A stretch of 64,000 nt of DNA from Pseudomonadota bacterium (GTDB taxonomy: Bacteria > Pseudomonadota > Gammaproteobacteria > UBA1113). The notes under the pieces are model-generated. The model did not search any database. It was not told the origin of the DNA and worked only from the letters and a program-made list of their open reading frames with translations. A program made the position numbers and the translations under genes. Positions 1 to 9,457 of the stretch are shown piece by piece (the first letter of the stretch is position 1; each line of letters opens with the position of its first letter). The stretch is from the NCBI GenBank assembly GCA_021778015.1, contig JAJYCX010000001.1:138471-202470 (forward strand), given 5' to 3'.

Positions 1-1150
1 GGGCTACCGCTATAATAATAGCATCTACATCGGTGATATCATCAAAAGCTTGTAGTTCAATGTGATATTCTTTTTTAACCAATTCAGCATTGGCTACAGG
101 ATCGTACGCTAGCACTTCAACACCATAAGACTGCAATTCTCCAACCATATCGATAACGCGTGAATTACGCATGTCGGCAGAGTTTTCCTTAAAAGTGAGT
201 CCTAATACAGCAATCCGGCAGTGTTTAATAGGTACGCCAATGTGAATTAAGTTTTTGATGGTACGCTCAGCAATATATTTTCCCATACGATCATTTACCT
301 GGCGGCCCGCTAAAATGACAGTGGGATAATATCCTACTTGTTGCGCCTTATACGTTAAATAATAAGGATCCACGCCTATACAATGCCCTCCGACTAATCC
401 CGAACGAAAATGCAAAAAGTTCCATTTTGTTTCTGCTGCTTTAAGCACCTCAATGGTATCAATATCGAGTCTATGAAAAATAAAAGATAGCTCATTCATC
501 AAAGAAATATTAAGATCACGCTGAGTGTTTTCAACCACTTTGGCCGCTTCTGCTACTTTAATGCTAGGCGCTCGATAAACGCCAGCTTCTGTAATCAAGC
601 TATAGATTTGCTCAAGCACATTCAAGGTATCTTCATCCTGGGCTGAAATAACTTTGACGGTGTTATTCAACACATGTTTTTTATCGCCTGGATTAGTACG
701 TTCTGGTGAATAGCCTACCGTAAAGTCAATACCTGCTTTTAAAGGTCTCACTTCTTCTATTGCTGGAATACAGACTTCTTCAGTAGCCCCAGGATAAACA
801 GTAGATTCATATACCACGATATCTTTGGGTTTTAAATGCCTAGCTACCACATGCGATGCAGATATTAAACAGCTAAAATCTGGCTGTTTCATAGCATCAA
901 TAGGCGTAGGCACCGTAATGATAAAGAAATTTGCCTTATCTAAACTTTCCTCATCGCTTGTAAATTGAATGTCTAGTTTTTCTAAATCACTTTTTGAAAA
1001 TTCATAGTTGTGATCGCAGCCTTTTTGTAATTCTTCAATACGCTTGACGGAAGTATCATACCCAATGATTTTCATTTTTCTCGCTAGACCATTTGCTAGA
1101 GTCAACCCCACATAACCTAAACCAATAATAGCAATTTTTCTTTTATTCAT
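1..1150 (-). CDS. Nucleotide-sugar dehydrogenase (UDP-glucose/GDP-mannose dehydrogenase family, WbpO/TviB/VipA-like); 3' end runs off the window
   Basis: Absent from the ORF track because it is open at the window edge. Reverse complement from ATG at 1150-1148 reads MNKRKIAIIGLGYVGLTLANGLARKMKIIGYD (N-terminal GxGxxG Rossmann). The catalytic-Cys motif GLVGGHCIGVDPYY lies at ~371-400. AGAGG RBS sits just upstream of the ATG. Confidence 0.85.
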   Translation of the reverse strand, partial: MNKRKIAIIGLGYVGLTLANGLARKMKIIGYDTSVKRIEELQKGCDHNYEFSKSDLEKLDIQFTSDEESLDKANFFIITVPTPIDAMKQPDFSCLISASHVVARHLKPKDIVVYESTVYPGATEEVCIPAIEEVRPLKAGIDFTVGYSPERTNPGDKKHVLNNTVKVISAQDEDTLNVLEQIYSLITEAGVYRAPSIKVAEAAKVVENTQRDLNISLMNELSFIFHRLDIDTIEVLKAAETKWNFLHFRSGLVGGHCIGVDPYYLTYKAQQVGYYPTVILAGRQVNDRMGKYIAERTIKNLIHIGVPIKHCRIAVLGLTFKENSADMRNSRVIDMVGELQSYGVEVLAYDPVANAELVKKEYHIELQAFDDITDVDAIIIAVA

Positions 1151-1167
1151 AATATACCTCTTCCTTT

Positions 1168-2541
1168 CTATAACTTCCGTCCTCTCAGACGATTCCAAAA
1201 GTACTGAACTGTGCCACGTACATAACTTAAAACCATAAACTGCCTAAATCCAAATAGATTTATGACTGCAAATAGAAACATGCGTAAAATATCCATCTTG
1301 CGACGATATATGTTAAAAGTAATTAAATTGAGTAAGATACTAGCCATCATGATAAATACAAAATAGGCCCATGCAATCCCTATAAATAATAACACGGGAT
1401 AACCGATTAAACCATAAAAACATCCTATCAATAAAGTCATATAGGCTATGAATTCTACTACAGGGCCAAACACCTCAAATAGAACGTAAAACGGAAAGGA
1501 AACACATCCTACTATGCCATAACGATAAAATAAACCGAGTTGTTTATGTTCCCAAAAGCTACATAATAAGCCTCGTTGCCAGGTTCCTCGTTGTCGCCAA
1601 AAAGCCTTTAAACTACCTGGCACTTCTGTCCAAGCAATGGCACTAGGATTATAACTAATTTTGTAAGGGCGGTGCTGATCGCGCATATATTGGTGCAATT
1701 TAATTGTAATCTCTGCATCGTGTGAGAAATTTCCTTTATCATGCCCTCCAGCGGCAATTACTGTGCGTGTATCAAATAATGTAAACGCACCCGAGTAACA
1801 TAAAGCGCCACCAAAATAACTCCAACCAGCGCGACCAAATAGAAATGAAGATAAATATTCATTGCACTGGAATCCTGTAACATAACCATGAGGAACACGG
1901 GGTTCTGTAAGCAATTTTCCATGAGATACTTTATTTCCATTTAAGACATAGACTGCGCCGCCTACCAATATGCAGTCTGGATTAGACAAATAAGTAAATA
2001 CCAAGCGGGAAACCGCATTAGGTTTCATAACGGTATCTGCATCTAGCGTCATGTATAAAGAGGTTCTACAAATATTAAGACCTGCATTGACTGCATCAGC
2101 TACTTGGCCATTGACTTTGTCAATTACTTTAATGTTCGGATAATCTGTTGAGGCAAAATAACGTTTCACTTCAGCCGTTTTTATGTTATTTTTTAACATA
2201 ATAGGGGTTTCATATAAGTTGAATGTTTTAATCAACTTTGGCAGGGTGTTATCCCTAGAACCATCGCAGGATATTATAATCTGTATATTTGCATAATCGC
2301 TGTTTAACGCGCTATAGACCGCGTTTAAAATTCGATCTTCCTCGTTATAAGCAGGAATAATAATAGAAACTGGCAAAACAGTTTCTTCGTGCATCAAGTC
2401 TGCAACATTGCCATAAGCAACTTCTTCAAATTTTCTAATCACCTCTGGAAAGGAAGCACATAGCAACACTGTATATCCAAATGCCATTATCAAGAAATAA
2501 CCTATAATCATATAATCAGCGTAAATCAATGCCTGTATCAT
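1168..2541 (-). CDS. Integral-membrane family-2 (GT-A) processive glycosyltransferase, polysaccharide synthase class (PgaC/IcaA/NfrB-like)
   Basis: 457-aa ORF. Motifs: IIIPAYNEEDRI, ISCDGSRDNT, TLDADT (DxD), and FWRQRGTWQRG in the QxxRW position. Hydrophobic N-terminus and about four C-terminal TM helices. The start overlaps the upstream gene's stop by 4 nt. Confidence 0.8.
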   Translation of the reverse strand: MIQALIYADYMIIGYFLIMAFGYTVLLCASFPEVIRKFEEVAYGNVADLMHEETVLPVSIIIPAYNEEDRILNAVYSALNSDYANIQIIISCDGSRDNTLPKLIKTFNLYETPIMLKNNIKTAEVKRYFASTDYPNIKVIDKVNGQVADAVNAGLNICRTSLYMTLDADTVMKPNAVSRLVFTYLSNPDCILVGGAVYVLNGNKVSHGKLLTEPRVPHGYVTGFQCNEYLSSFLFGRAGWSYFGGALCYSGAFTLFDTRTVIAAGGHDKGNFSHDAEITIKLHQYMRDQHRPYKISYNPSAIAWTEVPGSLKAFWRQRGTWQRGLLCSFWEHKQLGLFYRYGIVGCVSFPFYVLFEVFGPVVEFIAYMTLLIGCFYGLIGYPVLLFIGIAWAYFVFIMMASILLNLITFNIYRRKMDILRMFLFAVINLFGFRQFMVLSYVRGTVQYFWNRLRGRKL

Positions 2542-3611
2542 GGTTTATGTCTCCTTCTCTTGCGTATCTGAGTATGTCTATGCCTAGACAAAGCCTCTCT
2601 CGCCGCATCATAGGCACCGCTGTATGGCTTCGGAGATTGCTGCTGTAATATGGCCAAACCTATTTGCCCAAAACACAATAATGCTTCGGCACTGTATGTG
2701 CGAACCCACCACTCTGGATCAAATAACGCTTCCTCTAGAAGATGAATCGATTCTTTGTCTAATAATAATCCCAATGCATGTGCTGTTCTGGCTCGAATAA
2801 CCCAATCATCATCATACATAAAATTTCGAAGTCGACTAATATCTTTAACCTTAATTAAATAGTCTAATGCAACTACTCGTAAATCAATAAAATTACTATA
2901 TAGATCTGCTTCTAACTCTCTTATAACCTCATCTTTGGAGGGTAACAATAATAATAATCTATAACAAAGCGTACGAACAGAATGCGATTTTTCTTTTTCT
3001 AAACAATTTAACAATGCCTCTGTAAGCATAGGTCTTTCTTCTAGAATCATGCTTGCAATTGCGTCCTGCTGAAACCACTTCCAATGTGCTAAATGGGAAA
3101 TTACTTTTTCCAATAATTTGGTCGAGCCATGTTTAAAAGAAACTCGGGCAGCATTCAAGGATACTAACAGCACAGGATGTGATATAGCTTTTAGCAAATA
3201 ATGCTCATCTTCTGGATCAAATTGATAATAAAAACATTCTATTGCATAATATTTTTTTAGATAATTGTGCTTGCGAATTAATTTTTTTCCGGTTGGCAAC
3301 AGAACCTCTTTCCTTATTTTATTATAGAATAACGATTCAGATTGAATCTTTTCTTTACTTTGTTTCATCAGCATTAACACCCAAACGATTCTTTTTTGCA
3401 TATTTTTTATTTTGTCGTCTGTTAATAGACTTGTGTCACGCTCAGCTTCATGCCAAAAGGCCGTCCAATTTTCTTTTGTTCTTTTTCGAACAAGTCTCTT
3501 TATAACGAAGTAGCCTTTGAATAGATATGCGGATACAAGCATCAATACAACTAAGCTGACTTCAATCATAAATATAGTTTCAGCAATAGGAATAAATTCT
3601 GTGCGTGTCAT
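2538..3611 (-). CDS. Membrane-anchored HEAT-repeat protein, accessory subunit of the polysaccharide synthase operon
   Basis: 357-aa ORF with one N-terminal TM segment (IFMIEVSLVVLMLVSAYLF). C-terminal HEAT/PBS-lyase-type repeats (DDDWVIRARTAHALGLL, DPEWWVRTYSAEALLCFG). Its stop overlaps the GT2 start (ATGA), implying translational coupling. Confidence 0.6.
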   Translation of the reverse strand: MTRTEFIPIAETIFMIEVSLVVLMLVSAYLFKGYFVIKRLVRKRTKENWTAFWHEAERDTSLLTDDKIKNMQKRIVWVLMLMKQSKEKIQSESLFYNKIRKEVLLPTGKKLIRKHNYLKKYYAIECFYYQFDPEDEHYLLKAISHPVLLVSLNAARVSFKHGSTKLLEKVISHLAHWKWFQQDAIASMILEERPMLTEALLNCLEKEKSHSVRTLCYRLLLLLPSKDEVIRELEADLYSNFIDLRVVALDYLIKVKDISRLRNFMYDDDWVIRARTAHALGLLLDKESIHLLEEALFDPEWWVRTYSAEALLCFGQIGLAILQQQSPKPYSGAYDAAREALSRHRHTQIRKRRRHKP

Positions 3612-3624
3612 TCTTATCTTACCT

Positions 3625-5337
3625 TTAACTAAAACGCATGCTTAAATTCAACCCACCGCTGTATAGAGTGAGAACTGTTCCAGATGGATAAACCAATCTT
3701 TCATACATAGGGCCTATGCTCACTACATAACGATGATTGTCGATAGGAAAATTTAATTTAGCGTGTACATAGTTATTCTGCACTTTAATTAAAGCGGCTA
3801 CTGTTAGATCTGGCAGGTCTGGGCTGTGTCCTGTCCCTCCGCTAAGTTCTAGATAAAAATCTGGCGAACCAAAATGGCGGCGTGCTTTTAACGTATATAG
3901 AGTCGATCGTGGACCACCATTACTAGGCACAAAGTAATAGGGCCTAAAACTAAACCAATACTCTTTTATTGGTTTAGACAGAGAAGCCGTGTAGGTATTA
4001 ATATAGGTTGCGCCCAAGTTTCGATATTTTTCTCCCAATGAAAAATCCACTACATGAGGAATATTAGCATAAGCTTCAGCGCCTACTAAATAGTGCGGAA
4101 ATAACGCTTCTTGATCAGAATATGCCGTTACAAGTTCAAAATAAAGATAGCGATTTATCTTTGGATCAAATTGGAGCTCAGCTTGCGTACCCGAAAGTCC
4201 CAAACGATTGGCATAATTACCGCGCGCTTGTAGATAACCATAGGTTGTATCAGCACCCAAATAGAGACTATCATAGTACCACTTTTGATTTGTACTAGCC
4301 TCTTGATTCACATTAGAGACATTCGCCCCCCAACTATATGCACCCACTTTATAGGGTCCTACACCATATTGAGGTGGAGTATTGCGTACTTCTGTTAGCA
4401 AATTTTGTGCTTTTTCATCTTGGGGGTTTATCGTTAATACTTGTTGTAGGGTCTTTACACTTGCTACCGTATCGCCATTCTCAAATTCAATATAAGCCTT
4501 TTTCTTGAGTAAGACTTCATTCTGTGGTTCTAAAGCTAAACCTTCATTAACCAAAACTAATGCTTTTTGCCACTGCTTTAATGCTATTTCAGCATGGATC
4601 AGCAACACCCGTATATCTAAATCCCGTGGATATTGTGCCAGTACGGGCTCTAATATTTGTTCTACTGCAACATGATCTTTCTCATGGTTTTTAATCCTGG
4701 CTAATGCTAAAAATCCGTCCACATCATGCGGATAGTGTTGTACGTAAATTTTTGCGCTGCTTTCTGCTTGCTGCCATTGGTCTTGTGCAGTAAGTGCCTT
4801 GATATCCGCTAAAGTAGGTCCCGTGCTCACAGCTTTACTTGGTGCTTTGCTAGATGCTTTCGTTACCACGCTCGGCACTTTTTTTGCACTTGCCACCTTA
4901 TTAGTATTTATAGACTGAATATCGGCCTTTTTCTTCAGTAAAACGGTATTCTGTGGTTCTAGGACCAAACCGTCCTCCACCAAAGCCAATGCTTTTTGAT
5001 TGTTGTTTAATGTTATTTCAGCATTGATCAGTAACAGCCGTATATCCAAATACCGTGGATATTGTGCCAGTGCAGGCTGTAATATTTGCTCTACTGCCGC
5101 ATAATCTTTTTCATGGTTTTTGATAATAGCCAATTCTAATGAGCCATCCACATCTTTTGGATAGTGTTGTATGTAAACTTGTGCGCTGTTTTCTGCTTGT
5201 TGCCATTGGCCTTGTGCAATCAGGGCTTTGATATCGTCTAAAGTAGGTACGGTGTCTGCTGTGGCAAAGCCTAACAGCATAGCTAGGCATATTAATAAAA
5301 GCAAATAGATCGCTTTTTTTCTAAACTCTATCAACAT
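3625..5337 (-). CDS. Outer-membrane polysaccharide export protein: signal peptide, TPR region, C-terminal beta-barrel (PgaA/NfrA/YaiO-like architecture)
   Basis: 570-aa ORF. Signal peptide MLIEFRKKAIYLLLLICLAMLLGFATA. Duplicated TPR-like helical units, then a Tyr/Gly-rich alternating C-terminal half ending in ...LNLSMRFS (aromatic penultimate residue, typical of OM barrels). Confidence 0.6.
   Translation of the reverse strand: MLIEFRKKAIYLLLLICLAMLLGFATADTVPTLDDIKALIAQGQWQQAENSAQVYIQHYPKDVDGSLELAIIKNHEKDYAAVEQILQPALAQYPRYLDIRLLLINAEITLNNNQKALALVEDGLVLEPQNTVLLKKKADIQSINTNKVASAKKVPSVVTKASSKAPSKAVSTGPTLADIKALTAQDQWQQAESSAKIYVQHYPHDVDGFLALARIKNHEKDHVAVEQILEPVLAQYPRDLDIRVLLIHAEIALKQWQKALVLVNEGLALEPQNEVLLKKKAYIEFENGDTVASVKTLQQVLTINPQDEKAQNLLTEVRNTPPQYGVGPYKVGAYSWGANVSNVNQEASTNQKWYYDSLYLGADTTYGYLQARGNYANRLGLSGTQAELQFDPKINRYLYFELVTAYSDQEALFPHYLVGAEAYANIPHVVDFSLGEKYRNLGATYINTYTASLSKPIKEYWFSFRPYYFVPSNGGPRSTLYTLKARRHFGSPDFYLELSGGTGHSPDLPDLTVAALIKVQNNYVHAKLNFPIDNHRYVVSIGPMYERLVYPSGTVLTLYSGGLNLSMRFS
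4483..5251 (-). repeat. In-frame tandem duplication (offset exactly 429 nt = 143 codons) inside the TPR protein gene
   Basis: gatatcgtctaaagtaggta at 5230 and gatatccgctaaagtaggtc at 4801 (offset 429). Protein segments TLDDIKALIAQGQWQQAENSAQVYIQHYPKDVDG... and TLADIKALTAQDQWQQAESSAKIYVQHYPHDVDG... stay collinear for ~110 aa. Confidence 0.9.
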
Positions 5338-5357
5338 CCAAACATCCTTGATATTAA

Positions 5358-6335
5358 TTATTTTGTTTTATTGGCTCGCTTTCTATCGACCAAATCTTGA
5401 ATGGTTTCCTTTAATGCCCAGCGGTGTTGATAACCCGTTAATCTATAAAATTTTTCTAAATTTGGCTTGCGTCTTTGAATATCAACAAAGACTTCGCCAT
5501 AGGCTTCTTCATAAGGAATATGGGTGATAGACGAATCGCTATGGGCGATCTCTTTTACGAGTTCGGCCAGAGAATTGATTGAAATTTCAGTATCGTTGCC
5601 CACATTAACAATCTCGCCTACACTGGCTGCTTGGTTGGCCAGGCGATCTAAGGCTTCTACCGTATCGCGCACATCACAGAAAGAACGGCTTTGCTGACCA
5701 TCTCCATATACGGTAATAGGCTTAGCTGACACGGCCTGCTCTATAAAACGCGGCAATACCATACCATAACGGCCTGATTGCCTAGAACCTACGGTATTAA
5801 AGAATCGCACGGAAGTGATGGGTAAACCCTTATTTTGTGCATAAGACAAACCAAAAGCCTCATTGCTCACCTTGCTGATAGCATAATTCCAACGCGAATG
5901 CGCAGCCGGTTCAATCAGTACATCATCGGTTTCAGAAAAGGCCGCGGTTAGTCCTTGGCCATAGACCTCCGAACTAGAAGCAATCAAGATGCGTGGCTTA
6001 TGTCCGGATTGATCGGCTATACGTAATAGCCGCTCACAGCTGAGAATATTGGTATTTAACACTTGAATGGGGTCGGCGATAACTCTATAAACACCTACTA
6101 CAGCCGCCATATGATAAATGCGGTCAGCCCAAGAAACTGCGGATTCTAGGTCGGGCCAAGTTACAATATCGGCTTCATCAAAGCGAAATTTTGGGTTATC
6201 TTTAAAGTGCGCCACATTCTCAATACGGCCCGTGCTTAAGTCATCCACAACGCGCACCGAATGGCCCTTATTCATATGATAATCTACTAGATGAGAGCCT
6301 ATAAAACCACACCCTCCCGTGATGAGCACTTTCAC
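5358..6335 (-). CDS. NAD-dependent epimerase/dehydratase (extended SDR; UDP-sugar decarboxylase/dehydratase-like)
   Basis: 325 aa. N-terminal GGCGFIGSHLVD Rossmann motif, SSSEVYG, YAISK (YxxxK). Confidence 0.8.
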   Translation of the reverse strand: MKVLITGGCGFIGSHLVDYHMNKGHSVRVVDDLSTGRIENVAHFKDNPKFRFDEADIVTWPDLESAVSWADRIYHMAAVVGVYRVIADPIQVLNTNILSCERLLRIADQSGHKPRILIASSSEVYGQGLTAAFSETDDVLIEPAAHSRWNYAISKVSNEAFGLSYAQNKGLPITSVRFFNTVGSRQSGRYGMVLPRFIEQAVSAKPITVYGDGQQSRSFCDVRDTVEALDRLANQAASVGEIVNVGNDTEISINSLAELVKEIAHSDSSITHIPYEEAYGEVFVDIQRRKPNLEKFYRLTGYQHRWALKETIQDLVDRKRANKTK

Positions 6336-6402
6336 TTAACATCTCCCTGTCAGTTTAATACCGAAGTATATACTTTATGTGTAGAATTAAGCAAATGTAT
6401 GC

Positions 6403-7356
6403 CTATTGCAAATCCCATAAAGCCTGCAATCCGGACTGAAATGGTACTAAACTCACTATACCCGCCGCTTTTGCTTTTGTCGGATCCCCTAAAGCAGCCA
6501 TAATGTCACCGGCACGGGGCGCTGCATTCTCAACCAACACAGGCATATGATTCATTTTCTCTAATAGTTTGATCAAATGATTAATACTCACTGTTGTGCC
6601 GGTGCAGACATTAAAAACAGCCGCTTCGTTGCTTATTGTTTTCATGAAGAATAAACAATGTTGCACCACATCACTCACATGCACAAAATCGCGTGTTTGC
6701 TCACCAGAACCAAAAACCGTTAAAGGCAAGCCCTTTTGAATGCGTTCGATAAAAATAGGGATTACACCGGAATCGATGGTACCTGGGCGTTGCCTAGGTC
6801 CATACACATTGAAAAAACGCAATCCCACCGTAGGGATCTGATAAATAGCATTGGCAACCTTAGCATGCAATTCACACCCCAACTTATCGGCACCATAGGC
6901 AGATAAGGGGCTTGCTTTTAAGTCTTCATATAGCGCTTCTGTACCAAAATCACCATAAACCGCACACGAAGAAGCATATACAACTGGGATCATTTGTCCG
7001 CTTTTTTGTATTGCGTCAAACAAGGATATCGTTGCCGTTAAATTGATTAAATGGGTACCCACCCAATCATCCTTGCAAACTACCATTCCCAAGCGCGCAG
7101 CTAAATGAAAACAACCGGAAACACCTTCTAAACATTTTAATACTAAGGCTTGATCGGCAATACTGCCTTTCACAAAAGACAAATTATCGCGTTTGGGCGT
7201 AGCGACAGACCCTTCTATATAATCTGGATAAATATTTTCTAAACGCCCTGTACTCAGATCATCTAGCACCACCACGCTATGGCCTTGCGCCAATAAGGCA
7301 TCGACTAAATGAGAACCTATAAAACCAGCGCCCCCAGTCACTAAAAATTTTTTCAT
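6403..7356 (-). CDS. NAD-dependent nucleotide-sugar epimerase (extended SDR; WbpP/TviC-like by context)
   Basis: 317 aa. GGAGFIGSHLVD, YASSCAVYG, YGADK (YxxxK). First gene of the minus-strand operon that ends with a WbpO/TviB-like dehydrogenase. Confidence 0.75.
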   Translation of the reverse strand: MKKFLVTGGAGFIGSHLVDALLAQGHSVVVLDDLSTGRLENIYPDYIEGSVATPKRDNLSFVKGSIADQALVLKCLEGVSGCFHLAARLGMVVCKDDWVGTHLINLTATISLFDAIQKSGQMIPVVYASSCAVYGDFGTEALYEDLKASPLSAYGADKLGCELHAKVANAIYQIPTVGLRFFNVYGPRQRPGTIDSGVIPIFIERIQKGLPLTVFGSGEQTRDFVHVSDVVQHCLFFMKTISNEAAVFNVCTGTTVSINHLIKLLEKMNHMPVLVENAAPRAGDIMAALGDPTKAKAAGIVSLVPFQSGLQALWDLQ

Positions 7357-7569
7357 GGATATCGCCCTTCTAAGCTAAATAGAGAACCTACCGCAGTTTA
7401 AATTAAAATCCGTCAAAGCGCAAAAAGGCCTAAGCTATGCATAATTTCCTTATAAAGTTAAGGTTTGAGTGGATTTGTCTTTTGGTTATGTTTTAAACAA
7501 ACCTGCCCTTTTAAGCTGGGCAAAAAATGAGCTTTTTTGTTTTATACGCACAAATTAACCCAATCCCCC

Positions 7570-7598
7570 TTGCTATTTAGCCGCAAATCCACTACGAT
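7570..7598 (+). promoter_or_regulatory. Sigma70-type promoter for tRNA-Asn
   Basis: TTGCTA (7570-7575), 17-nt spacer, TACGAT (7593-7598), ending 13 nt before the tRNA 5' end. Confidence 0.5.
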
Positions 7599-7611
7599 AG
7601 CGCCTTGTTGT

Positions 7612-8335
<724 letters not shown>

Positions 8336-8343
8336 ATTGGATA

Positions 8344-9375
8344 CTAGATCCCCGCCTTCGGCGAGGATGACAAGCCGGTTACTATTTCTTTGACTAATCC
8401 GGGTCCTTCATAAATTAATCCACTATACAATTGTAACAATTTAGCGCCCGCTGCGCACTTACGTTTAGCATCGTCCAAGGACATAATACCGCCCACGCCT
8501 ACTAAGGGAATAGCCTCTCCTAAAGCACTATAAAATGCGGTCAATACTGCATCGGCACGAGCGCTTAAAGCACGGCCACTGATCCCCCCGGGTTGATCAC
8601 GCCACTCAACTGGCACATTATCGCGATTGATCGTCGTGTTGGTGGTCACAATAGCATCCATTTTCTGTGTGCAGAAAATATCGGCTAACACTTTAATCTC
8701 TTCATTGCTTAAATCCGGCGCTACCTTAATCCACAAAGGTACATAGCGTTGACTACGATCGGCATAATCTCTTTGTGCTTTTTTTAATCCAGCTAACAGC
8801 TGGCGGCAATAATCTCCGTGTTGTAGCTCGCGTAAACCTACCGTATTGGGGGAAGAAATATTAATGGTGACATAGTCACAAAAAGGCGCCGCCTTATTGA
8901 AACAATAGAGATAATCTTGAAGCGCATCTTCTAAGGCCGTATTCGTGTTTTTACCAATGTTCACGCCCACAATTTGACCCGCGGGTCTTTTCTTGAGGTT
9001 TTCGACCAAGTAATCCACCCCTTGATTACAAAAGCCCATACGGTTTAATAAGGATTGCTGGTCCGGCAAACGAAACAAGCGTGGCTTAGGATTTCCAGGT
9101 TGCGCCTTAGGTGTAATGGCGCCCACTTCAATAAAACCAAAGCCTAAATGAAACAAAGCGGGTAAATGGGCGGCATGATTGTCAAAACCCGCAGCCAAGC
9201 CCACCGGATTTGGAAAAGATAAGCCAGAGACTTGCACGGGTGTTTGTCGCGCCCATTTTGGATATGTATTGACCACTTTTGCTTGCAAATCCAATAGCCC
9301 TAAGACTAGATGATGCACCCTTTCAGGAGGCCACCTAAATAGTAAAGGTCTTATTATTTCGTATAATTTTTTCAT
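8344..9375 (-). CDS. pyrD: Dihydroorotate dehydrogenase (quinone), class 2
   Basis: 343 aa. N-terminal membrane-association helix, FPNPVGLAAGFD, GFIEVGAITP, NISSPNT, GVGGI motifs. Confidence 0.9.
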   Translation of the reverse strand: MKKLYEIIRPLLFRWPPERVHHLVLGLLDLQAKVVNTYPKWARQTPVQVSGLSFPNPVGLAAGFDNHAAHLPALFHLGFGFIEVGAITPKAQPGNPKPRLFRLPDQQSLLNRMGFCNQGVDYLVENLKKRPAGQIVGVNIGKNTNTALEDALQDYLYCFNKAAPFCDYVTINISSPNTVGLRELQHGDYCRQLLAGLKKAQRDYADRSQRYVPLWIKVAPDLSNEEIKVLADIFCTQKMDAIVTTNTTINRDNVPVEWRDQPGGISGRALSARADAVLTAFYSALGEAIPLVGVGGIMSLDDAKRKCAAGAKLLQLYSGLIYEGPGLVKEIVTGLSSSPKAGI

Positions 9376-9457
9376 TTTCTGCTTTCTTCATCTACATTTT
9401 AGCGCTAAGAGTATATAAAGAAGTGGGCCCTATGTACAGTTATTGTTGCTTCAAAGC

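Follow-up and report, generated by a model that had tools for sequence, protein, structure and literature searches.

A probable polysaccharide operon of an uncharacterised HEAT–GT2–YaiO family in a gammaproteobacterium

What is made, and under which control, by an operon that pairs a membrane glycosyltransferase with a HEAT-repeat protein? The question is raised by six genes at the left end of a 64,000-nucleotide stretch of DNA (designated here as the window) from a gammaproteobacterium of the lineage UBA1113 (GenBank assembly GCA_021778015.1, contig JAJYCX010000001.1, positions 138,471–202,470). They encode two short-chain dehydrogenases/reductases (SDR-A and SDR-B), an exporter with tetratricopeptide repeats (TPRs) and a YaiO-type β-barrel, a membrane-anchored HEAT-repeat protein (the HEAT protein), a family 2 glycosyltransferase (GT2) and a nucleotide-sugar dehydrogenase. 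Synthase-dependent systems, such as those for cellulose, poly-N-acetylglucosamine (PNAG), alginate and Pel, underlie much of the knowledge of biofilm matrices, and to our knowledge all four have been described as gated by cyclic di-GMP (c-di-GMP). A preliminary description, made from the DNA sequence, had proposed that the six genes form such a system and may export an acidic amino-sugar homopolymer. The type of locus stands, with a GT2 that resembles hyaluronan synthase (HAS), BcsA and chitin synthases (Chs) and an exporter that resembles BcsC and PelBC; the sugar chemistry is not supported in the form proposed. We consider the operon to be probably a synthase-dependent polysaccharide machine of an uncharacterised HEAT–GT2–YaiO family, with a modified amino-sugar polymer as its product.

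The HEAT–GT2 pair and its exporter

The HEAT gene lies directly upstream of the GT2 gene, mostly overlapping it, in 18 loci that were anchored on the GT2 and annotated with our own hidden Markov models. These loci belong to Gemmatimonadota, Bdellovibrionota, Nitrospinota, Thermodesulfovibrio, Bacillaceae, Clostridia, Halanaerobiales and Pseudomonadota, and four genomes of the order of the present bacterium show the same arrangement. Of 401 genomes sampled evenly across its class, Gammaproteobacteria, 22 (about 5%) possess a homologue, and the two genes are neighbors in 18 of the 20 loci retrieved from this sample. Counting only HEAT genes that lie upstream of and overlap a GT2 gene of this clade, the arrangement is shared by the present copy and more than 35 loci. 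Word-index searches with the HEAT protein and the barrel yielded five proteins each, and gene context was taken from the GT2-anchored loci. Translational coupling of the HEAT protein to the GT2, wherever the family occurs, is at least strongly indicated.

The preliminary description had placed the HEAT protein in the position of a synthase partner and had not recognized the combination from described systems. The former is supported by the fixed pairing in loci of many phyla, and a literature search likewise gave no description of a HEAT protein combined with a GT2. The search for the GT2, HEAT and TPR-barrel triad suggested there revealed that the pair recurs across phyla, mostly together with a receiver protein, and that the YaiO barrel accompanies it in diderms: clustering of neighboring genes and Pfam annotation identified a YaiO barrel adjoining the pair in diderm loci, and none was found in monoderm loci. 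Two other companions recur, namely receivers (REC or Hpt-REC-GGDEF-REC) in 11 loci and a large unannotated protein at six loci, five of them monoderm. In monoderms, the latter may take the place of the exporter. The five copies listed in Table 1 have 600–1077 amino acids (aa) and are almost devoid of Pfam matches; the gene directly follows that of the GT2 in three of them and closely precedes the HEAT gene in L024 and L042.

The sequence of the GT2 gives little guidance. Its best NCBIfam match is still the PgaC/IcaA equivalog TIGR03937 (96 bits, cut-off 422), and a search of the PDB yielded weak matches (BcsA, 33–37 bits), because of which a fold search was used. An AlphaFold2 model (pLDDT 87.6, pTM 0.87) comprises an N-terminal transmembrane helix, a GT-A core, an interface helix bearing Q317-R-G-T-W321 and a C-terminal helical bundle. 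This model and that of the exporter described below were both confident, and were built from shallow alignments (25 and 18 sequences, respectively). When the GT2 model was compared with the PDB by Foldseek, HAS from a Chlorella virus ranked first (E 6e-16, TM-score 0.58–0.65), followed by XlHAS1 (Xenopus HAS1), BcsA from E. coli and Rhodobacter, and fungal and oomycete chitin synthases; the best 27 matches are all polymer-translocating synthases. The model strongly indicates that the GT2 has the fold of the single-step polymerase-translocases that make hyaluronan, cellulose and chitin, and not that of a lipid, lipopolysaccharide-core or non-processive family, the possibility raised against it in the preliminary description.

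The HEAT protein contains a single hydrophobic segment (residues 13–31), corresponding to one transmembrane helix, with one Lys/Arg residue before it and six after it. By the positive-inside rule, this distribution places the HEAT solenoid in the cytoplasm, and a cytoplasmic HEAT domain anchored by one transmembrane helix is thus strongly indicated by the sequence. Alignment of 22 homologues showed that the conserved part is a C-terminal pair of "D..W.VR..AA.ALG" repeats ("W-x-V-R" HEAT), in which W270, R273, D298, W301, V303 and R304 are invariant or nearly so. A profile of the family matched only the designed alphaRep, MTH187, CpcE and YibA in the PDB, which are generic PBS-type HEAT proteins and offer no functional lead. 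Against 1.84 billion representative proteins, the profile was swamped by multi-repeat HEAT giants and no family size could be read; about 60 of its best 150 matches are family members with a single HEAT stretch and a length of 335–365 aa.

The exporter passes the cut-offs of both YaiO models, PF19413 (107 bits, cut-off 23.9) and TIGR04390 (76 bits, cut-off 32), and scores far lower against PgaA (TIGR03939, 45 bits, cut-off 367) and the curated BcsC model (23 bits, cut-off 858). Its N-terminus has the features of a signal peptide, a hydrophobic segment at residues 9–27 followed by A-T-A↓D. In the AlphaFold2 model (mean pLDDT 88.5), helices occupy residues 33–325, interrupted by a disordered linker (152–171), and 14 strands occupy residues 329–569. 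The best whole-length Foldseek match is E. coli BcsC (9b8a, E 9e-11), and PelBC (9h80) was matched too. The model strongly indicates a BcsC/PelB-like build, in which a cleavable signal peptide precedes periplasmic TPRs and a YaiO barrel of 14 strands, and the protein presumably resides in the outer membrane, where the preliminary description had placed it. A literature search found no experimentally established function for the YaiO family.

The TPR region of the exporter (window positions 4483–5251) is itself an in-frame tandem duplication of residues ~29–159 and 172–302: the two blocks align without gaps over 131 aa, are 69% identical in amino acids and 77% identical in nucleotides, and are offset by exactly 429 nucleotides (nt). 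They are joined by the linker at 152–171, which is rich in Ser, Lys, Ala and Pro and modeled at a pLDDT below 50. The exporters of related loci range from 279 to 1133 aa, and the length of the scaffold is therefore evolutionarily labile.

A gammaproteobacterial subclade with a remodelled active site

The nearest named relatives of the window GT2 are proteins from Legionella quinlivanii, L. lytica, L. saoudiensis and Tatlockia (43–47% identity), and it is on these named matches that we base the label "Legionella-type". In a maximum-likelihood tree, 12 gammaproteobacterial GT2s of the window type formed one clade with a support of 100/100, and linkage to dehydrogenase and SDR genes occurs within this clade. 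We compared a canonical set of ~33 GT2 sequences from many phyla with a remodelled set of 16, the window sequence included. The comparison is given as counts, and no statistical test is applied because the relatives are not independent of one another.

The two sets differ at three motifs of the synthase. Around D149, the canonical sequences have G-K-x-D, the Lys of which is lost from the remodelled set (QVAD in place of GKAD in the window GT2). Canonical [G/T]-E-D is replaced by [H/Q/Y]-D (SHD in place of GED), and canonical Q-R-x-R-W is replaced by a motif with T, A, K, N, H, F or R before the Trp. In BcsA, HAS and Chs, the residues of the GK, ED and QxxRW motifs line the donor/acceptor site, and the Arg of QxxRW touches the donor diphosphate in solved synthases. 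The Thr before the Trp in QRGTW (residues 317–321), which the preliminary description had pointed out, is hence real and belongs to a remodelling of three motifs that extends over the whole clade.

Gene content differs along the same line. A dehydrogenase gene, an SDR gene or both adjoin 14 of the 16 remodelled loci and none of the ~33 canonical ones. Conversely, a single-domain receiver gene precedes the HEAT gene in eight of the 13 canonical loci of the class sample, and a ninth has a 230-aa REC protein farther away, whereas no receiver gene lies upstream in the remodelled loci, two of which have a kinase and a receiver after the GT2. The family is thus split between linkage to sugar genes and linkage to receivers, and the motif remodelling is on the sugar-gene side.

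Two relatives show further rearrangements. In L102 (G296:C1:1074000-1093900), positions 8457–9389 hold the HEAT gene as three open reading frames (ORFs; 88, 126 and 91 aa) before an intact GT2 gene and an SDR-A-like gene, and this copy of the module may be decaying. In L096 (Legionella lytica, GCA_044626755.1; positions 3278–9386), there are two paralogous GT2s that group as sisters in the tree. The gene of one precedes a YaiO–HEAT–GT2 set as a solitary gene, and neither a dehydrogenase nor an SDR gene is nearby.

Sugar-nucleotide enzymes and the nature of the polymer

The dehydrogenase passes the cut-off of the nucleotide-sugar dehydrogenase subfamily (TIGR03026, 379 bits, cut-off 190) and falls short of that of the TviB equivalog (NF011729, 457 bits, cut-off 592); its scores are 179–210 bits with models of UDP-N-acetylmannosamine dehydrogenase and 132–160 bits with models of UDP-glucose dehydrogenase. 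We read it as a TviB/WbpO-type N-acetylhexosamine 6-dehydrogenase that lies outside the curated equivalog. The preliminary description had paired a dehydrogenase of this type with a WbpP/TviC-type 4-epimerase. The first half of this pairing agrees with our reading. The second is not supported, SDR-A being PelX-like and SDR-B UXS1-like.

RmlB-type 4,6-dehydratases carry T-D-E, and human UXS1 presumably relies on T118, E120 and R277 for catalysis, that is, on (S/T)-S-E, Y-x-x-x-K and a C-terminal Arg. The best solved relatives of SDR-B are four human UXS1 entries (150–152 bits over residues 2–313), with which its A-S-S-S-E-V-Y-G and D-I-Q-R-R-K-P align at A-S-T-S-E-V-Y-G and D-P-Q-K-R-K-P. The Glu of S-S-E is kept, together with the R-x-P motif, in eight SDR-B sequences, those of this genome and seven loci. 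SDR-B lacks the GalE-type C-terminal GD[IV] motif that is present in SDR-A, and scores only 91 bits against TviC (NF011728, cut-off 760) and 116 bits against the curated UXS-type model PRK11908 (cut-off 294). It is also SDR-B that is linked to the dehydrogenase: at 10 related loci, the gene adjoining that of the dehydrogenase encodes an SDR-B orthologue (298–404 bits), not SDR-A. We rejected a 4,6-dehydratase because S-S-E stands where T-D-E would be expected, despite scores of 134–140 bits with LegB and RmlB. Judged by these motifs and matches, it is an even call whether SDR-B is a decarboxylase.

A pair of Bacillus cereus enzymes, UGlcNAcDH and UXNAcS, was reported by Gu et al. in 2010 to make UDP-N-acetylxylosamine (UDP-XylNAc). 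Since a UDP-N-acetylhexosamine dehydrogenase likewise stands beside a UXS-like SDR in the present operon, the route would, by this analogy, most likely run from UDP-N-acetylglucosamine (UDP-GlcNAc) through UDP-N-acetylglucosaminuronic acid (UDP-GlcNAcA) to UDP-XylNAc. Both B. cereus enzymes are named in PMC5078965.

SDR-A carries the GalE-type epimerase motifs S-S-C-A-V-Y-G and GDI, and remains below the curated cut-offs for GalE and TviC (NF011728, 127 bits, cut-off 760). Its best solved relative is PelX (6wjb/6wj9, 203 bits; 118 bits with WbpP, 1sb8), these entries being those of the PelX UDP-GlcNAc 4-epimerase (bioRxiv 10.1101/2020.05.26.111013). By sequence, SDR-A can supply UDP-N-acetylgalactosamine (UDP-GalNAc), or the corresponding uronic acid, UDP-GalNAcA, if the dehydrogenase takes UDP-GalNAc. 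It accompanies the module in five of the 16 remodelled-clade loci (the window, G008, L101, L102 and L105).

The product may hence contain N-acetylxylosamine, N-acetylglucosaminuronic acid (GlcNAcA) or both, and it is probably a different amino-sugar polymer from that of the relatives. N-Acetylxylosamine has no C6 and therefore could not be joined by the β-1,6 linkage of a PNAG-like polymer. A bolder and tentative proposal, which we would not favor as it stands, is that the Legionella-type subclade makes and exports a chitin-like, N-acetylxylosamine-rich polymer devoid of C6, with a donor/acceptor site rebuilt for a sugar from a co-recruited dehydrogenase and decarboxylase and with the HEAT protein as an obligatory, c-di-GMP-independent activating subunit. 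We know of no described exopolysaccharide of this kind. In one relative, L095, two weak homologues of polysaccharide deacetylases follow the GT2, which fits an N-acetylated polymer.

Of the competing explanations, the one that survives best holds that the polymer is acidic (poly-GlcNAcA, poly-GalNAcA or a HAS-like alternating chain) and that both SDRs are 4-epimerases only, with no decarboxylation. The similarity of the dehydrogenase to TviB and that of SDR-A to GalE/PelX-type 4-epimerases agree with it, as do three SDR-B orthologues carrying S-S-S-S-[AV]-Y-G, which we take to be a motif of UDP-glucuronate 4-epimerases. In addition, the nearest solved fold of the GT2, HAS, uses a uronic-acid donor, and a carboxylate could be accommodated where the clade has His, Gln or Tyr instead of the ED Glu. 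However, S-S-E and R-x-P are kept in SDR-B of this genome and of seven loci, SDR-B is closer to UXS1 (152 bits) than to TviC, and the clade has lost positively charged residues, the Lys of GK and the Arg of QxxRW, which is unexpected for an anionic donor. On balance we regard an acidic polymer as rather unlikely. Its narrower form, the GalNAcA homopolymer of the preliminary description, is possible but not best supported given the UXS1-like SDR-B, and we hold it to be unlikely as well.

It is improbable that the operon is a decayed or repurposed copy, which has lost the QxxRW Arg, the GK Lys and the receiver gene under relaxed selection in a reduced genome and makes no polymer. The genome is small (2.0 Mb), only one of the nine other genomes of the genus has the module, the HEAT gene of L102 is in three pieces, and QRGTW here and QRNAW in a sister genome are the only aligned clade sequences with a small uncharged residue before the Trp. 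Yet none of the six ORFs is broken, a Shine-Dalgarno sequence and a coupled start are in place, and the sister genome retains the HEAT, GT2 and dehydrogenase genes with a GT2 of 71% identity. The motif changes are common to the whole 16-member subclade, free-living Legionella included. Moreover, D97, D167xD169, D275, Q317, R318 and W321 are invariant in 25 clade members that are 39–70% identical to the window GT2, so that purifying selection on the catalytic residues is likely, which speaks against decay. A short oligosaccharide, glycolipid or periplasmic glycan made by a NodC- or OpgH-like GT2 next to an unrelated YaiO barrel is very improbable: NodC and the membrane mannosyltransferase PcManGT do occur among the sequence or fold matches, and the literature found offers no experimental basis for YaiO function, but the leading fold matches are all translocating synthases, a C-terminal helical bundle follows the QRxxW helix, the barrel bears long periplasmic TPRs and matches BcsC and PelB, and its gene lies beside the HEAT–GT2 pair in diderm loci and was not found in monoderm ones.

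The reading that we prefer, a synthase-dependent machine for a modified amino-sugar polymer, has several points against it. The members of the family are unstudied, and we infer polymer production and export from homology and architecture. Lacking the QxxRW Arg, the window GT2 could have an altered activity or none. TM-scores between the exporter and BcsC are low (0.28), because the orientations of the domains differ. SDR-B reaches no curated cut-off in NCBIfam (LegB 140, RmlB 134, ArnA 121 and UXS-type 116 bits), Ser replaces the UXS Glu in three orthologues (L005, L098 and L106), and the decarboxylase assignment may fail for part of the clade or altogether. The module is patchy, being present in five of the 21 genomes of the order and, as stated above, rare in the genus; the order itself is small, comprising 21 species-level genomes in a single family. 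Finally, a consensus scan of the minus strand of the 255-nt region upstream of the operon found no sigma-70-like site; the location of the promoter in Table 1 is therefore presumed only.

Operon layout, control and relation to known systems

The features are listed in Table 1. Positions are those of the window; the module occupies its left 7.4 kb, with all its genes on the minus strand. The six co-oriented, intact ORFs, to each of which Pfam and NCBIfam searches gave an identity, agree with the gene list of the preliminary description.

Table 1. Positions of the operon genes, the presumed promoter region and the large proteins of related loci
Feature	Position	Strand	Length and annotation
SDR-A, PelX-like UDP-N-acetylhexosamine/hexose 4-epimerase	6403..7356	-	317 aa; Pfam Epimerase 172 bits
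SDR-B, UXS-like SDR, candidate UDP-GlcNAcA decarboxylase	5358..6335	-	325 aa; Pfam Epimerase
Predicted outer-membrane exporter, TPR and YaiO barrel	3625..5337	-	570 aa; PF19413, TIGR04390, TPR
Transmembrane-anchored HEAT protein	2538..3611	-	357 aa; Pfam HEAT_2 36.9 bits (cut-off 27.7)
Membrane GT2 synthase	1168..2541	-	457 aa; Pfam Glycos_transf_2 / Glyco_tranf_2_3 / Glyco_trans_2_3
TviB/WbpO-like UDP-N-acetylhexosamine 6-dehydrogenase	1..1150, continues past left edge	-	427 aa; UDPG_MGDP_dh N, central and C domains
Upstream intergenic region, presumed operon promoter	7357..7611	-	255 nt between SDR-A start and tRNA-Asn
Large protein of four monoderm and Thermodesulfovibrio loci	L012:11362-14595, L013:11383-13797, L019:11398-14082, L024:6997-8823, L042:4669-6849		600–1077 aa; almost no Pfam match

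In gene order, the first three gaps measure 67, 20 and 13 nt; the HEAT and GT2 genes then overlap by 4 nt, and 17 nt separate the GT2 stop codon from the ATG of the dehydrogenase gene. That ATG, at 1150, is preceded by the Shine-Dalgarno sequence AAGGAAGAGG and is most likely the start; we rejected a TTG at 1198, which would give a 31-nt overlap with the GT2 gene. With this start the operon has one 4-nt overlap, so that of the earlier account the gaps of 13–67 nt hold and the second overlap does not. According to the flanking sequence, the dehydrogenase ORF extends 133 nt past the left edge of the window. Next comes a 1064-aa ATP-grasp gene in convergent orientation, and the operon therefore consists of exactly six genes. 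Upstream, the 255-nt spacer, in which neither strand carries a gene, is followed by tRNA-Asn on the opposite strand, trmB and pyrD. A foreign origin was rejected on composition, the HEAT, GT2 and dehydrogenase genes having 35–38% GC against a genome mean of 41.3% (SD 3.5%, 1-kb windows). Two observations concern the neighbors. The tRNA-Asn gene (7612–7687, plus strand) shares 30 nt with the end of the convergent trmB ORF (7658–8335, minus strand). In the 1064-aa protein (L002:10416-13610, just left of the window), ATP-grasp/L-amino-acid-ligase domains are confined to the last 400 residues and the first ~650 residues have no Pfam match; its gene is preceded by a truncated-looking 265-aa ORF of the major facilitator superfamily.

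The preliminary description had found no deacetylase, PilZ or GGDEF-type partner, and this is confirmed for the operon. Pfam and NCBIfam scans of the six proteins detected no c-di-GMP-binding domain (PilZ, PgaD, PelD or MshEN), and no GGDEF or EAL domain was found in the assembly (50 contigs, 83.6% complete), which has one unlinked 120-aa PilZ ORF and 13 REC domains. The organism may thus be devoid of c-di-GMP signaling altogether. No REC gene lies in or beside the operon, the nearest being 86 kb away; a dedicated receiver encoded elsewhere was rejected, as the best match in this assembly has 31% identity, compared with the 50% shared by two module-linked receivers. Given the lack of a receiver and of c-di-GMP enzymes, this copy is probably constitutive or transcriptionally regulated.

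We propose the following mechanism. The HEAT protein would act on the cytoplasmic face of the synthase as a stoichiometric co-subunit, activator or scaffold, in the place taken elsewhere by PgaD, PilZ or PelD/E. Analogous activators are PgaD/IcaD, the Sel1-repeat protein Chs4 of yeast chitin synthase III, and PelE, an inner-membrane protein whose cytoplasmic TPR-like solenoid offers a loose parallel to the HEAT partner. In canonical members, this partner would probably relay the phosphorylation state of the receiver to the synthase. In the subclade, receiver control would have been replaced or lost and the synthase retuned to a donor provided by the attached enzymes; a substrate other than that of the canonical family would agree with the remodelling of the three donor/acceptor motifs. 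The building block would be a modified UDP-GlcNAc: UDP-GlcNAcA would come from the dehydrogenase, SDR-B would most likely decarboxylate it to UDP-XylNAc, and SDR-A could add UDP-GalNAc. The polymer would then pass the periplasm along the TPRs and leave through the 14-strand barrel, giving a neutral or partly acidic surface polymer of N-acetyl-pentosamine and N-acetylhexosamine.

The operon resembles PgaABCD/IcaADBC in a membrane GT2 coupled to a small inner-membrane partner (PgaD/IcaD there, the HEAT protein here), a TPR and barrel exporter (PgaA there), a GT2 whose best curated model is PgaC_IcaA, and a likely N-acetylhexosamine-type donor. It differs in having no PgaB deacetylase, in the low scores of the GT2 and exporter against the PgaC/IcaA and PgaA models, in a 357-aa cytoplasmic HEAT solenoid instead of a c-di-GMP-dependent peptide with two transmembrane segments, in a 14-strand YaiO barrel (that of PgaA has 16 strands), and in dehydrogenase and decarboxylase-like genes dedicated to the operon. 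With the Bcs and Pel systems it shares the build of the exporter, for which BcsC is the best structural match and PelBC another, and the fold search with the GT2 also retrieved BcsA; with Pel it also shares an SDR nearest to PelX, the UDP-GlcNAc 4-epimerase attached to pel operons. Unlike them, it has no PilZ domain, BcsB, PelD or PelF (GT4), and its genome shows no c-di-GMP cyclase or phosphodiesterase. Class I HAS from Chlorella virus and Xenopus is the best structural match of the GT2 (~480–520 aligned columns), is of similar size and is also a single-chain polymerase-translocase; it uses UDP-GlcNAc and a UDP-uronic acid, and the present operon probably supplies both kinds of donor. However, sequence identity is ~15%, HAS acts alone, with neither a HEAT partner nor an outer-membrane exporter, and HAS keeps QxxRW.

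The B. cereus UGlcNAcDH and UXNAcS, which are encoded side by side as well, correspond to the adjacent dehydrogenase and UXS-like SDR of this operon and of 10 related loci; we know of no case in which their genes stand beside a HEAT–GT2 synthase. In E. coli K-12, the yaiS-yaiP-yaiX-yaiO locus likewise has a YaiO barrel beside a membrane GT2 (YaiP), together with a deacetylase and an acyltransferase, so that the YaiO family is perhaps generally tied to polysaccharide loci. Neither a HEAT protein nor TPRs are encoded there, and the locus is uncharacterised and, in K-12, interrupted by IS2; a close relationship of YaiO and YaiP to the window proteins was rejected, pairwise similarity being insignificant. 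Within NC_000913.3:380069-384616, the co-oriented genes are yaiS (deacetylase), yaiP (GT2), yaiX (acyltransferase, split by IS2) and, last, yaiO. This cluster has the appearance of a cryptic polysaccharide locus, and the literature search gave no functional study on it. Lastly, the operon shares with the canonical HEAT–GT2–YaiO family the core triad, in which the HEAT gene overlaps the start of the GT2 gene and a YaiO-type barrel is present; it differs by the lack of an upstream receiver, by three sugar-nucleotide genes and by the remodelled GK, ED and QxxRW motifs.

Taken together, the family differs from known systems in its fixed partner, a HEAT solenoid, and in its type of barrel, YaiO. 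What is new here is a subclade to which sugar genes have been attached and in which the active site has changed in parallel, and this gives a substrate hypothesis, with UDP-GlcNAcA or UDP-XylNAc as the donor. The coordinated loss of the "invariant" QxxRW Arg, the HEAT partner and the absence of c-di-GMP control would surprise a specialist in these systems. The canonical and remodelled synthases constitute a natural experiment on the choice of sugar by GT2 enzymes. In Legionella-like, protist-associated bacteria, an unrecognized surface polymer could matter for attachment or for survival in hosts.

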